Origin: Escherichia coli
Lineage (GTDB): Bacteria; Pseudomonadota; Gammaproteobacteria; Enterobacterales; Enterobacteriaceae
Reading direction: 5' to 3' (one strand)
DNA length: 64,000 nucleotides
Assembly (NCBI RefSeq): GCF_017348835.2
Contig: NZ_CP071375.1
This document shows positions 17,895-29,255 of this stretch, in pieces. How positions within the stretch are numbered: position 1 is the stretch's first letter; the number at the start of each line of letters is the position of its first letter. The position numbers were made by a program, and so were the translations under genes. Below the pieces are notes generated by a model that was not told the origin of the DNA, searched no databases, and saw nothing but the letters and a program-made list of their open reading frames with translations.

Positions 17895-20324
17895 GTGTCG
17901 TCGTTGCCCGTTGCTGCCGTCTTACCTGAATTACTTACCGCTCTCGATTGTGCGCCGCAGGTATTATTAAGTGCGCCGACCGGGGCCGGGAAATCAACCT
18001 GGCTGCCGCTGCAACTGCTGGCGCATCCCGGCATTAACGGGAAAATTATCCTGTTGGAGCCACGGCGTCTGGCGGCGCGTAACGTCGCGCAACGGCTGGC
18101 GGAGCTGCTTAACGAAAAGCCAGGCGATACCGTTGGCTACCGGATGCGTGCGCAAAACTGCGTCGGGCCGAATACCCGCCTGGAAGTGGTTACCGAAGGC
18201 GTGCTGACGCGGATGATCCAGCGTGACCCGGAGTTGAGCGGTGTTGGATTGGTGATCCTTGATGAATTTCATGAGCGTAGCTTGCAGGCGGATTTGGCGT
18301 TGGCGCTGTTACTCGATGTGCAACAAGGTCTGCGTGATGACCTTAAACTGCTGATTATGTCGGCTACGCTGGACAACGACCGCTTGCAACAAATGCTACC
18401 AGAAGCGCCCGTCGTCATCTCAGAAGGGCGCTCGTTTCCGGTTGAACGCCGTTATTTACCGCTGCCCGCCCATCAGCGTTTTGACGAAGCCGTCGCGGTT
18501 GCGACCGCCGAAATGCTGCGTCAGGAAAGTGGATCATTACTGTTATTTTTACCGGGCGTCGGAGAAATTCAGCGTGTGCAGGAACAACTGGCTTCGCGTA
18601 TCGGCAGTGATGTGTTGCTCTGCCCGCTGTATGGCGCGTTGTCGCTGAACGATCAGCGAAAAGCGATCCTCCCGGCACCGCAAGGGATGCGCAAAGTCGT
18701 GCTGGCGACCAATATTGCTGAAACCAGTTTAACTATCGAAGGTATTCGTCTGGTGGTGGATTGCGCCCAGGAAAGGGTGGCGCGTTTTGATCCGCGAACA
18801 GGGCTTACGCGACTAATTACTCAGCGAATCAGTCAGGCGTCGATGACGCAGCGTGCCGGGCGCGCCGGGCGTCTGGAGCCGGGTATCTGCCTGCATTTAA
18901 TCGCCAAGGAACAAGCAGAACGCGCCGCGGCGCAAAGTGAACCGGAAATATTACAAAGCGATCTTTCCGGTTTGCTGATGGAATTACTGCAATGGGGATG
19001 CAGCGATCCGGCGCAGATGAGCTGGCTGGATCAACCGCCAACGGTGAATCTACTGGCCGCGAAACGCCTGTTACGGATGCTGGGGGCGCTGGACGGTGAA
19101 CGGCTTAGTGCGCAGGGGCAAAAAATGGCAGCGCTGGGTAACGATCCGCGTTTAGCGGCAATGCTGGTTAGCGCAAAGAGCGACGACGAAGCTGCTACCG
19201 CGGCAAAAATTGCCGCCATTCTCGAAGAGCCGCCACGGATGGGCAATAGTGACCTGGGCGTGGTGTTTTCGCGCAATCAGCCAGCCTGGCAGCAACGTAG
19301 TCAGCAACTGTTAAAACGCTTAAACGTATACGGCGGTGAGGCAGACAGTTCGCTTATCGCGCTGCTACTTGCCGGGGCGTTTGCCGATCGCATTGCTCGC
19401 CGCCGTGGGCAAGATGGACGCTATCAACTGGCAAACGGCATGGGAGCGATGCTCGATGCCGACGACGCGCTAAGCCGCCACGAATGGTTGATCGCACCGT
19501 TATTATTGCAGGGCAGCGCCTCGCCGGATGCGCGGATTTTACTGGCGCTACCGGTCGATATTGATGAATTAGTGCGACGCTGTCCGCAGCTGGTGCAGCA
19601 ATCTGACACCGTGGAATGGGATGACGCGCAAGGTACGCTGAAAGCCTGGCGTCGGCTGCAAATCGGTCAGTTGACGGTGAAAGTGCAGCCGTTGGCGAAA
19701 CCGTCAGAAGACGAGTTGCATCAGGCGATGCTTAACGGCATCCGTGATAAAGGTTTAAGCGTGCTCAACTGGACGGCGGAAGCGGAACAGCTACGCTTGC
19801 GTTTGTTATGCGCCGGAAAGTGGTTGCCAGAATATGACTGGCCAGCGGTTGATGATGAAAGTTTGTTGGCGACGCTGGAAACGTGGCTGCTGCCACATAT
19901 GGCCGGTGTACATTCACTACGCGGCCTGAAATCACTCGACATTTATCAGGCACTACGCGGATTACTTGATTGGGGAATGCAGCAACGTCTGGATAGTGAA
20001 TTGCCTGCGCATTACACTGTGCCGACGGGAAGCCGGATCGCCATTCGTTATCATGAAGATAACCCGCCCGCGCTGGCGGTGAGAATGCAGGAGATGTTTG
20101 GTGAGGCCACCAATCCGACGATCGCTCAGGGGCGCGTGCCGCTGGTGCTGGAGTTGCTTTCCCCTGCCCAAAGGCCGCTGCAAATCACGCGTGATTTGGG
20201 GGCCTTCTGGAAAGGGGCGTATCGTGAGGTGCAAAAAGAGATGAAAGGGCGTTATCCCAAACACGTCTGGCCGGACGACCCGGCAAACACGGCACCGACG
20301 CGACGGACGAAAAAGTATTCGTAA
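17895..20324 (+). CDS. hrpB: ATP-dependent RNA helicase HrpB (DEAH-box)
   Basis: Walker A GAGKST and DEFH motifs; probable GTG start at 17895 (VSSLPVAAVLPELL...). The ORF track begins at the upstream ATG 17850. Confidence 0.9.
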   Translation: MSSLPVAAVLPELLTALDCAPQVLLSAPTGAGKSTWLPLQLLAHPGINGKIILLEPRRLAARNVAQRLAELLNEKPGDTVGYRMRAQNCVGPNTRLEVVTEGVLTRMIQRDPELSGVGLVILDEFHERSLQADLALALLLDVQQGLRDDLKLLIMSATLDNDRLQQMLPEAPVVISEGRSFPVERRYLPLPAHQRFDEAVAVATAEMLRQESGSLLLFLPGVGEIQRVQEQLASRIGSDVLLCPLYGALSLNDQRKAILPAPQGMRKVVLATNIAETSLTIEGIRLVVDCAQERVARFDPRTGLTRLITQRISQASMTQRAGRAGRLEPGICLHLIAKEQAERAAAQSEPEILQSDLSGLLMELLQWGCSDPAQMSWLDQPPTVNLLAAKRLLRMLGALDGERLSAQGQKMAALGNDPRLAAMLVSAKSDDEAATAAKIAAILEEPPRMGNSDLGVVFSRNQPAWQQRSQQLLKRLNVYGGEADSSLIALLLAGAFADRIARRRGQDGRYQLANGMGAMLDADDALSRHEWLIAPLLLQGSASPDARILLALPVDIDELVRRCPQLVQQSDTVEWDDAQGTLKAWRRLQIGQLTVKVQPLAKPSEDELHQAMLNGIRDKGLSVLNWTAEAEQLRLRLLCAGKWLPEYDWPAVDDESLLATLETWLLPHMAGVHSLRGLKSLDIYQALRGLLDWGMQQRLDSELPAHYTVPTGSRIAIRYHEDNPPALAVRMQEMFGEATNPTIAQGRVPLVLELLSPAQRPLQITRDLGAFWKGAYREVQKEMKGRYPKHVWPDDPANTAPTRRTKKYS

Positions 20325-20334
20325 GGTTGGTTTT

Positions 20335-20410
20335 CTCCCTCTCCCTGTGGGAGAGGGCCGGGGTGAGGGCATCAGCGCGTACGTTCACCCTCACCCTCAA
20401 GGGAGAGGGG
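20335..20410. repeat. GC-rich palindromic intergenic repeat (boxC-like) forming two or three stem-loops
   Basis: CCCTCTCCC-tgt-GGGAGAGGG (20337-20357); GGGTGAGGG...CCCTCACCC (20361-20396); GGGAGAGGG (20401-20409). The family name is from memory. Confidence 0.5.
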
Positions 20411-20507
20411 ACCGATCGAGCACAAATTTTGAGAGATATCTTCTTCTGTCTTGTAACAGAAGAACAGAAAATCGGGCTTTTGCGCCTGAATATTGCGGAG
20501 AAAAAGC

Positions 20508-23042
20508 ATGGCCGGGAATGACCGCGAGCCAATTGGACGCAAAGGGAAACCGACGCGTCCGGTCAAACAAAAGGTAAGCCGTCGTCGTTACGAAGATGAC
20601 GATGATTACGACGATTATGATGACTATGAGGATGAAGAACCGATGCCGCGCAAAGGTAAGGGCAAAGGCAAAGGGCGTAAGCCTCGTGGCAAACGCGGCT
20701 GGCTATGGCTGCTGTTAAAACTGGCTATCGTTTTTGCCGTGCTGATCGCCATTTACGGCGTTTATCTCGATCAAAAAATTCGTAGCCGTATTGATGGCAA
20801 GGTCTGGCAACTGCCTGCGGCAGTTTATGGTCGAATGGTCAACCTTGAGCCAGACATGACCATCAGCAAGAACGAGATGGTGAAGCTGCTGGAGGCAACA
20901 CAGTATCGTCAGGTGTCGAAAATGACCCGTCCTGGCGAATTTACTGTGCAGGCTAACAGCATTGAGATGATCCGCCGTCCGTTTGATTTTCCGGACAGCA
21001 AAGAAGGGCAGGTGCGTGCGCGTCTGACCTTTGATGGCGATCATCTGGCGACGATCGTCAATATGGAGAACAACCGTCAGTTCGGTTTCTTCCGTCTTGA
21101 TCCGCGTCTGATCACCATGATCTCCTCACCAAACGGTGAGCAGCGTTTGTTTGTGCCGCGCAGTGGTTTCCCGGATTTGCTGGTGGATACTTTGCTGGCG
21201 ACAGAAGACCGTCATTTCTACGAGCATGATGGGATCAGTCTCTACTCAATCGGACGTGCGGTGCTGGCAAACCTGACCGCCGGACGCACGGTGCAGGGAG
21301 CGAGTACGCTGACGCAACAGCTGGTGAAAAACCTGTTCCTCTCCAGCGAGCGCTCTTACTGGCGTAAAGCGAATGAAGCCTACATGGCGCTGATCATGGA
21401 CGCGCGTTACAGCAAAGACCGTATTCTTGAGCTGTATATGAACGAGGTGTATCTCGGTCAGAGTGGCGACAACGAAATCCGTGGCTTCCCGCTGGCGAGC
21501 TTGTATTACTTTGGTCGCCCGGTAGAAGAATTGAGCCTCGATCAGCAGGCGCTGTTAGTCGGTATGGTGAAAGGAGCGTCCATCTACAACCCGTGGCGTA
21601 ACCCGAAACTGGCGCTGGAGCGACGTAATCTGGTACTGCGTCTGCTGCAACAGCAACAGATTATTGATCAAGAACTCTATGACATGTTGAGTGCGCGTTC
21701 GCTGGGTGTTCAGCCGCGCGGTGGGGTGATCTCTCCTCAGCCAGCCTTTATGCAACTGGTGCGTCAGGAGCTTCAGGCTAAATTAGGCGATAAGGTAAAA
21801 GATCTCTCCGGCGTGAAGATCTTCACTACCTTTGACTCGGTGGCCCAGGACGCGGCAGAAAAAGCCGCCGTGGAAGGCATTCCGGCACTGAAGAAACAGC
21901 GTAAGCTGAGCGATCTGGAAACCGCGATTGTGGTCGTCGACCGCTTTAGTGGTGAAGTTCGTGCGATGGTCGGAGGTTCTGAGCCGCAGTTTGCGGGCTA
22001 CAACCGTGCGATGCAGGCGCGTCGTTCGATTGGTTCCCTTGCAAAACCAGCGACTTATCTGACGGCCTTAAGCCAGCCGAAAATCTATCGTCTGAATACG
22101 TGGATTGCGGATGCGCCAATTGCGCTGCGTCAGCCGAATGGCCAGGTCTGGTCACCGCAGAATGATGACCGTCGTTATAGCGAAAGCGGCAGAGTGATGC
22201 TGGTGGATGCGTTGACCCGTTCGATGAACGTGCCGACGGTAAATCTGGGGATGGCGCTGGGGCTGCCTGCGGTTACGGATACCTGGATTAAACTGGGCGT
22301 ACCGAAAGATCAGTTGCATCCGGTTCCGGCAATGCTGCTGGGGGCGTTGAACTTAACGCCAATCGAAGTGGCGCAGGCATTCCAGACCATCGCCAGCGGT
22401 GGTAACCGTGCACCGCTTTCTGCGCTGCGTTCGGTAATCGCGGAAGATGGCAAAGTGCTGTATCAGAGCTTCCCGCAGGCGGAACGCGCTGTTCCGGCGC
22501 AGGCGGCGTATCTGACACTATGGACCATGCAGCAGGTTGTACAACGCGGTACGGGTCGTCAGCTTGGGGCGAAATACCCGAACCTGCATCTGGCAGGGAA
22601 AACAGGGACTACCAACAATAACGTAGATACCTGGTTTGCGGGCATTGACGGCAGTACGGTGACCATCACCTGGGTCGGCCGTGATAACAACCAGCCGACC
22701 AAACTGTATGGTGCCAGCGGGGCAATGTCGATTTATCAGCGTTATCTGGCAAACCAGACGCCAACGCCGCTGAATCTTGTTCCGCCAGAAGATATTGCAG
22801 ATATGGGCGTGGACTACGACGGCAACTTTGTTTGCAGCGGTGGCATGCGTGTCTTGCCGGTCTGGACCAGCGATCCGCAATCGCTGTGCCAGCAGAGTGA
22901 GATGCAGCAGCAGCCGTCAGGCAATCCGTTTGATCAGTCTTCTCAGCCGCAGCAACAGCCGCAACAGCAACCTGCTCAGCAAGAGCAGAAAGACAGCGAC
23001 GGTGTAGCCGGTTGGATCAAGGATATGTTTGGTAGTAATTAA
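20508..23042 (+). CDS. mrcB: Bifunctional penicillin-binding protein 1B (transglycosylase/transpeptidase)
   Basis: 844 aa from [18 protein letters not shown]...; charged N-terminal region, transglycosylase and transpeptidase regions, Q-rich C-terminus. Confidence 0.95.
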
Positions 23043-29234: not shown

Positions 29235-29255
29235 GCCTCGCCCGGTGGGCGAGGC
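29235..29255. terminator. Bidirectional hairpin terminator between convergent fhuB and hemL
   Basis: GCCTCGCCC-ggt-GGGCGAGGC, a perfect 9-bp stem in the 34-bp convergent intergenic gap. Confidence 0.5.

Follow-up and report, generated by a model that had tools for sequence, protein, structure and literature searches.

The intergenic region between hrpB and mrcB was examined in a 64,000-nt stretch of Escherichia coli DNA (NZ_CP071375.1; hereafter the window). The mrcB product, PBP1b, is a major cell-wall synthase and an antibiotic target. The host is a non-K-12 E. coli strain whose hrpB-mrcB region is 100% identical to that of strain PE164, and identity to the region reaches at least 99% in 30 of 5435 matching records. 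The K-12 counterparts of the two flanking positions are 164,534 (end of hrpB) and 164,730 (start of mrcB), and the MG1655 RefSeq annotation places no feature on the boxC pair that lies between them. Several small overlapping open reading frames appear in a mechanical list for the spacer (for example 20327-20521 and 20347-20577 on the plus strand, 20372-20566 on the minus strand), as had been noted. Covariance-model scans found no Rfam match in any part of the spacer, and a scan of the spacer detected no canonical promoter or terminator, with 0 terminator sites in 20200-20600 on either strand. Folded as RNA, 20325-20510 reaches -75.1 kcal/mol (z = -3.84; 0 of 200 shuffles as stable). The features discussed below are collected in Table 1.

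Table 1. Features of the hrpB-mrcB region and the related cdaR-yaeH palindrome, in window coordinates.
Feature	Position	Strand	Basis
Equivalent of the distal mrcB start (K-12 164,235)	20025	+	51-nt promoter string, exact match at 19975-20025
hrpB stop codon, TAA	20322-20324		Annotation of identical or near-identical E. coli records
Whole boxC composite (inverted unit pair and flanks)	20326..20424	.	Alignment of filled and empty alleles; spacers of other Escherichia; flank signatures common to other K-12 copies
Left boxC unit, type B, intact	20331..20381	+	Published TMECO pattern; identity to TMECO no. 1; nhmmer
Right boxC unit, type A, truncated	20387..20421	-	K-12 allele alignment; nhmmer with a 12-column gap; deletion junction count
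Equivalent of the K-12 RNA 3' end 164,636	20414	+	5 nt past the last GGGAGAGGG; 94 nt upstream of the mrcB ATG
Conserved ~80-nt core upstream of mrcB	20427..20507	+	Spacer comparison; 79-sequence alignment
Hairpin 1, AT-rich: TTCTTCTGT / loop CTTGTA / ACAGAAGAA	20441..20464	+	Perfect 9-bp inverted repeat; fold; covariation
GAAAAT (invariant GAnAAT motif), candidate -10 of the proximal mrcB start	20467..20472	+	Invariant columns; -10 role inferred
Hairpin 2: CGGGC / TTTTGC / GCCTG	20473..20488	+	Fold; stem conserved, without compensatory change
mrcB start codon, ATG	20508-20510		Annotation of identical or near-identical E. coli records
cdaR-yaeH palindrome, probable truncated boxC unit	39313..39345	-	Sequence; nhmmer with flanks; fold; K-12 Term-seq

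The GC-rich inverted repeats that had been described at 20337-20409 are all present at those coordinates. CCCTCTCCC (20337-45) is complementary to GGGAGAGGG (20349-57) across a TGT loop, GGGTGAGGG (20361-69) is complementary to CCCTCACCC (20388-96), and AGGGAGAGGG (20400-09) is complementary to 20337-46. The arrangement CCCTCTCCC-N2-8-GGGAGAGGG occurs once in the window and 0 times in 100 shuffles. TMECO elements are defined by the three-block pattern CCCTCNCCC-N3-6-GGGNGAGGG-N3-GGGNGAGGG (Holder 2015, PMC4666352), which has a single exact match in the window, at 20337-20369 on the plus strand; this match forms the core of the left unit, which further carries the 5' flank TTTTCT, the second loop CCG and the 3' extension CATCAGCGCG. 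In the right unit, one G block and the TTA loop are missing through a 12-nt deletion, so that just the hairpin CCCTCTCCC-TTGA-GGGTGAGGG is left, with the 5' flank GGTC; the three-block pattern is accordingly absent from this unit on the minus strand and present in its K-12 allele.

To place these units we built an nhmmer profile with flanks from 13 K-12 boxC units at nine other loci, leaving the hrpB-mrcB locus out, and this profile recovered the left unit at E = 7e-12 and the right unit at E = 9e-5. Table 1 of Holder 2015 (PMC4666352) lists TMECO no. 1, CCCTCTCCCTGTGGGAGAGGGCCGGGGTGAGGGC, at 164,547-164,580 (+) and TMECO no. 2, CCCTCTCCCTTGAGGGAGAGGGTTAGGGTGAGGGT, at 164,631-164,597 (-) in MG1655, and since both fall between the end of K-12 hrpB (164,534) and the start of mrcB (164,730) they are the two units of this spacer. 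Both were found when the K-12 spacer was checked for them, and the left unit of the window is identical in sequence to TMECO no. 1. The same two units are listed as HPGQ 5 and 6 among conserved putative G-quadruplex/hairpin motifs (Kaplan 2016, PMC5100583), and Holder 2015 (PMC4666352) equates the TMECO motif with the BoxC repeat of the 1990s and with the PIT element of Hoyne and Maher, counting 23 copies in MG1655, all of them intergenic. BoxC was also recovered as a known E. coli stem-loop family by Petrillo et al. 2008. The window shares with the catalogued boxC/PIT/TMECO/HPGQ elements the locus itself, the pairing of a type B with a type A unit, the intergenic position and the variability between strains; it differs in that its right unit, shortened by 12 nt as in ~0.6% of complete genomes, falls outside the three-block definition. 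The GC-rich palindromes are thus a boxC copy already known at exactly the hrpB-mrcB locus, and the earlier attribution to a boxC-type repeat was right. The many further copies that this attribution implied also exist: a 43-nt BLAST query matched at least once in 4532 of the 5426 complete E. coli genomes. The detectable boxC places, almost all chromosomal, number 7 in the median genome and up to 15, and all of these counts are lower bounds.

What had been read as three interlocking inverted repeats is the standard layout of a boxC pair, to judge from other pairs in K-12. Type B units have the flank TTTTCY and the second loop CCG, type A units the flank GGTC and the second loop TTA, and a B(+)...A(-) pair with both flanks also lies at fepB-entC, ygfF-gcvP, alx-sstT and lldD-trmL. 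Among K-12 copies, each 5' flank, whether TTTTCY or GGTC, is preceded by a GAGCAC-like stretch, and three K-12 pairs have a similar central segment of ~27 nt in common. Because of the conserved flanks and this shared central segment, the repeated unit appears to be longer than the published motif of 34-37 nt.

Four allelic states were distinguished by alignment at this locus, namely the full pair (K-12, O157), the 12-nt deletion of the window, a single hairpin (strain 2010C_5028) and an empty site. The single-hairpin outcome corresponds to the "palindrome effect" of Holder et al. (PMC4666352). Empty-site alleles, such as those of UTI89 and E. albertii, lack the whole composite; in UTI89 and EFF60 the hrpB stop codon is TGA and 12 other bases stand in place of the ~100-nt element. 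Across the 5426 complete genomes, the pair (scored at ≥80% cover of a 421-nt query) is found in 65% (n = 3535 genomes), the empty-site junction in 27% (n = 1471 genomes) and the 12-nt-deletion junction of the window allele in 0.6% (n = 32 genomes), and roughly 8% have neither the pair nor the empty site; BLAST counts of the single-hairpin allele are confounded by joined pieces of the full allele. The pair is predicted to fold as one long RNA hairpin, which the deletion weakens, the values being -74.2 kcal/mol for the K-12 pair (z = -7.5) and -54.4 kcal/mol for the window allele (z = -3.9).

A 93-nt empty spacer is carried by E. albertii, E. whittamii and another Escherichia species, so the empty state is probably ancestral in the genus. 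On the favoured reading, a composite of ~100 nt has come to lie, as an insertion, behind the hrpB stop codon and in front of an older conserved core upstream of mrcB, and the right unit has lost 12 nt by a short-repeat deletion that kept its hairpin and removed the three-block motif. Since about a quarter of E. coli and the sister species have nothing at this site, the pair is best seen as a spreading and decaying repeat rather than as a dedicated regulator of hrpB or mrcB.

The variation at this spacer, within E. coli and beyond it, agrees with gain and loss of the element in one piece, and this raises the question of whether the boxC composite is a non-autonomous mobile element, of the MITE or REP kind, that inserts as a discrete unit. 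The composite is present or absent with the same boundaries in different strains, it has end signatures of its own (TTTTCY by the type B unit, GGTC by the type A unit), and its copy number differs greatly between strains. E. coli E69 and Lelliottia carry the pair at this spacer in inverted orientation, and the copy that Pseudocitrobacter faecalis has there agrees with the K-12 pair at 96/100 positions, against ~85% identity in the flanking coding DNA. Such high identity may nonetheless reflect structural constraint or gene conversion among copies. Measured against what is expected of a MITE, the composite has inverted ends, presence/absence polymorphism and both orientations, but inspection of the junction between filled and empty alleles brought no target-site duplication to light, and we know of no transposase for the boxC family. 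Plasmids account for only 38 of 29,536 boxC places, and the single case looked at, from JM109, carries the chromosomal argF region; Holder 2015 (PMC4666352) likewise reported no link to transposons, phages or plasmids. We hold mobility of this kind to be possible but on the unlikely side, and keep to the description of the pair as a repeat that spreads and decays.

Several observations lie beside this question. Arrays of up to five boxC units occupy the hrpB-mrcB spacer in other lineages, and P. faecalis has two and a half tandem copies of a block of ~126 nt in which the same boxC pair as in E. coli is found. The JM109 replicon, "plasmid unnamed1" (231 kb), has its boxC in the chromosomal xynR-argF region (TMECO no. 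4); it is apparently of F-prime type and does not amount to evidence for plasmid-borne boxC.

REP and BIME elements offer the closest comparison. Like boxC, they are short GC-rich intergenic palindromes in many copies, single or in inverted pairs, with RNA 3' ends at their base, which would agree with a shielding from 3' exonucleases, and REP-like GCCGGATAAGGCG...CATCCGGC palindromes occupy the same hrpB-mrcB position in Citrobacter and Salmonella. Unlike them, boxC belongs to another sequence family, built of CCCTCNCCC/GGGNGAGGG blocks; its third G block gives it a triplex or G-quadruplex potential that REP lacks; and REP has an associated transposase, for which boxC has to our knowledge no equivalent.

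The triplex and G-quadruplex potential has suggested a role for boxC as DNA, in which an intrastrand triplex, a G-quadruplex or a cruciform would switch nearby genes or stall replication. The C-G-G order of the three blocks is intact in the left unit of the window, oligonucleotides of the family consensus form triplexes as well as G-quadruplex/hairpin structures in vitro (PMC4666352, PMC5100583), and TMECO loci vary between strains more than control loci do (Holder 2015, PMC4666352); the allelic series described above also fits slippage at a structured repeat. Double-stranded TMECO DNA, however, gave no triplex signal, in vivo DMS footprinting detected no protection, and Holder 2015 (PMC4666352) saw no relation to what the neighbouring genes do or how they are spaced. 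Moreover, the right unit of the window has lost its third block with no sign of any consequence. On this balance we judge an action through non-B DNA to be quite unlikely, and the preferred description of the pair as a spreading and decaying repeat is retained for what follows.

A palindrome related to the hrpB-mrcB repeats had also been proposed between cdaR and yaeH. It lies where it was said to lie, and kinship with boxC is plausible; what is missing is the third defining block, so that the three-block pattern does not occur there. With the flanked profile, a minus-strand match was obtained at 39351-39318 (E = 0.0015), which takes in model positions 6-39, the initial 34 matched positions of a unit, and so covers its flank, C block, loop and first G block. 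When the 23 published TMECO sequences were used as a core-only profile, 39313-39345 gave no significant match (E = 0.64). The sequence comparison thus points to a palindrome that is probably a truncated relative of boxC. Its minus strand folds at -25.5 kcal/mol, and inspection detected no T run after the stem on either strand. In K-12, Term-seq mapped an RNA 3' end at 183,649 (-) with 61,322 reads, 3 nt past this stem (Adams 2021, PMC7815308), and because so strong an end lies so close to the stem, the palindrome marks the 3' end of the yaeH mRNA. In E. coli, the cdaR-yaeH spacer (39280-39370) exists in three or more alleles that are unrelated to one another; a shorter and different sequence with a hairpin of its own is present in ~1860 of 5424 genomes, and in numbers this split resembles that between filled and empty sites at hrpB-mrcB.

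The hrpB-mrcB pair coincides with an RNA 3' end as well, so that the transcript ends whose absence was to refute the earlier proposal are present in K-12 at the base of both structures. Term-seq recorded the end at 164,636 (+) in M63 0.4 with 987 reads, in the class "orphan" (Adams 2021, PMC7815308), and the 61-nt string given for it puts it 5 nt after the last GGGAGAGGG; the signal is weak and was seen in one growth condition out of three, the other two, both in LB, being without it. Its equivalent in the window was placed by the distance from the mrcB ATG and is, for the host strain, an extrapolation from K-12.

Two readings of this end were weighed. The original prediction had offered the repeats as a terminator or insulator for hrpB, in which case the pair would halt RNA polymerase before it reaches the mrcB promoter. 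In favour of this, the K-12 3' end comes 5 nt after the last stem of an extremely stable structure, and the related cdaR-yaeH hairpin coincides with the strong yaeH 3' end. As in a rho-independent terminator, a stable GC-rich stem-loop follows the stop codon with an RNA 3' end close by; unlike such a terminator, none of the boxC stems is followed by a U-tract, and the terminator scan of 20200-20600 found no site. Reporter assays of PIT elements, in the account that Holder 2015 (PMC4666352) gives of them, detected neither terminator nor promoter activity. Furthermore, the element is missing from 27% of E. coli genomes and from the sister species, a mapped mrcB start inside hrpB implies read-through, and the 3' end is weak and confined to a single growth condition. 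What stands of the proposal is the K-12 3' end at the base of the pair; the data support a terminator or insulator only weakly, and we consider that reading improbable.

REP elements are known to define and protect RNA 3' ends by blocking exonucleases, and the boxC pair may act alike. Once transcribed, it folds into a very stable RNA hairpin, whose most likely effect would be to set or shield the 3' end of an RNA, either as a block to 3'-to-5' exonucleases or through occasional non-canonical termination. Given that no T run follows the stems and that the earlier assays detected no terminator activity, exonuclease blockage or processing is favoured over true termination as the likeliest origin of the 3' end, although the data do not separate termination from exonuclease trimming or processing.

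Downstream of the boxC composite, the sequence next to mrcB is of a different kind. The mrcB upstream regions of 80 Enterobacteriaceae species were taken, and 79 loci were aligned. Spacer length ranges from 75 to 664 nt, and the last ~80 nt are conserved in all 79 aligned loci, with TTGAGAGA, GAnAAT and GGAGA invariant. Every insert that varies between species is found on the left side of this core; the inserts are boxC in Escherichia, Enterobacter, Leclercia and Pseudocitrobacter, and in Citrobacter and Salmonella they are REP-like sequences. Depending on the genus among the 80 species, the gap between the hrpB stop codon and the core holds 1 to 5 boxC units, REP-like GCCGGATAAGGCG...CATCCGGC palindromes, or nothing. 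No Rfam family matched 20427-20507 at E values up to 10, and none matched it in the window scan at gathering thresholds.

The core contains the AT-rich hairpin that had been noted in the mrcB leader. Its sequence had been read correctly, and its coordinates had been set about 7-8 nt too far to the right (the arms lie at 20441-49 and 20456-64, rather than within 20448-72); the distance to mrcB, put at roughly 35 nt, is in fact 43 nt from the end of the hairpin to the ATG. This hairpin alone folds at -10.1 kcal/mol (z = -2.9), and together with hairpin 2 at -19.0 kcal/mol (z = -4.6). It was recovered independently by RNAalifold. Its outer stem is nearly invariant (TTCTTC/GAAGAA), and its inner stem varies while remaining paired (TGT/ACA, CACC/GGTG, CTCC/GGAG and others). 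In the alignment, 93.8% of cells are paired for the two-hairpin structure and 93% for hairpin 1, compared with 50-57% for slid-partner controls. There are 82 double-change cells, whereas shuffles give 28.7 ± 5.6 and 0 of 500 shuffles reach 82; this covariation was counted per sequence rather than per evolutionary event and is inflated by related species. Within hairpin 1, G.U cells outnumber A.C cells (68 vs 11), which points to an RNA of the plus strand rather than to a palindrome in DNA.

In Klebsiella and Raoultella, hairpin 1 is still next to mrcB although hrpB is 17 kb distant, and the hairpin lacks a U-tract; a role as hrpB terminator is thus unlikely. An anti-Shine-Dalgarno role for its 5' arm (CUUCUUCU), which might reach the ribosome binding site once the hairpin opens, was also considered and set aside, as constrained folding did not support it: when the 3' arm was kept from pairing, GGAG became only somewhat less accessible (unpaired probability from ~0.9 to ~0.7), and the minimum-energy structure contained no pairing between CUUCUUCU and the ribosome binding site.

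Whether mrcB transcripts contain the hairpin depends on where they begin, and the E. coli data sets conflict on this point (164,699 vs 164,235). SMRT-Cappable-seq (Supplementary Data 2) places the start of b0149 (mrcB) at 164,699, equivalent to window position 20477, which gives a 31-nt leader that begins just after GAnAAT; because this start is downstream of hairpin 1, transcripts from it would lack the hairpin. Kim 2012 (supplementary file 2) places the E. coli start at 164,235, inside hrpB, and a leader from there would hold the boxC pair and both hairpins. The same study maps the mrcB start of Klebsiella pneumoniae 296 nt upstream of the ATG. A promoter-like string, TTGTTAC-N17-GTAAAAT, lies 241-297 nt upstream of mrcB in 7 of 7 Klebsiella and Raoultella loci; its position fits the published K. 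pneumoniae start, with leaders of 241-297 nt, and the conserved core therefore lies inside the mapped Klebsiella leader.

The proximal start invites a reading in which the AT-rich hairpin is a DNA operator or promoter palindrome, from about -36 to -13 relative to 164,699. This would accord with the start lying downstream of the hairpin, with the nearly invariant outer half-sites TTCTTC/GAAGAA, and with the binding of RpoD holoenzyme to the hrpB-mrcB spacer in genomic SELEX. An operator, however, does not account for an inner stem that varies freely in sequence while complementarity is kept, nor for the excess of G.U over A.C cells, which is what a plus-strand RNA would leave behind; the mapped long leaders of E. 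coli and Klebsiella contain the hairpin, and the promoter scan found no sigma-70-like promoter. The SELEX-proposed -10, TGTAAC, moreover falls in the variable loop. We regard the operator as unlikely, and favour instead an ancestral feature that is kept as a plus-strand RNA stem-loop in long mrcB leaders; as the hairpin is conserved and distinct from boxC, an RNA role for it in the mrcB leader is plausible. The SELEX-based promoter itself (TTGAGA-17-TGTAAC) was rejected as a candidate, its -10 lying in the loop of hairpin 1 and not being conserved in other genera.

In its compensatory changes, its fixed distance from the start codon, its occurrence in many genera and its presence in mapped leaders, hairpin 1 resembles the conserved stem-loops of enterobacterial 5' leaders that Rfam classes as cis-regulatory. 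It differs from them in having no Rfam match and in that one data set puts the start site downstream of it. We know of no ligand, protein or sRNA partner for it. A more far-reaching proposal is that the ~80-nt core, with UUGAGAGAU invariant and hairpins 1 and 2, is an undescribed cis-regulatory leader for PBP1b synthesis or mRNA stability across Enterobacteriaceae, that in most E. coli the boxC 3' end at 164,636 modulates the amount of full-length leader, and that natural alleles differ in mrcB expression; this is speculative, and we would give it little credence.

For the spacer as a whole, the explanation that we consider very likely is a boxC copy, as a spreading and decaying repeat with an effect on RNA 3' ends, next to a separate and ancestral stem-loop of the mrcB leader. 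The main feature is not new, as the boxC/TMECO pair at hrpB-mrcB had already been catalogued. Novelty, of a modest kind, is confined to the structured core that is conserved upstream of mrcB and lies outside all Rfam families; the regulation of mrcB is poorly described, and a structured core of ~80 nt outside the RNA family databases merits a mutational test. Thousands of strains also provide a natural allelic series (pair, 12-nt deletion, single hairpin, empty site, inverted pair), which, together with the K-12 3' end at the base of the element, offers a simple way to test the effect of boxC on neighbouring transcripts.

Elsewhere in the window, a loose hairpin scan picked out a perfect GC-rich palindrome, GCCTCGCCCGGTGGGCGAGGC, at 29235-29255, which is 2 substitutions away from the boxC hairpin pattern and probably unrelated to it. 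Rfam matches above the gathering score were obtained for the CssrA sRNA (45632-45741), the t44 RNA (44707-44793) and the HtrA 5' UTR thermometer (36505-36550).
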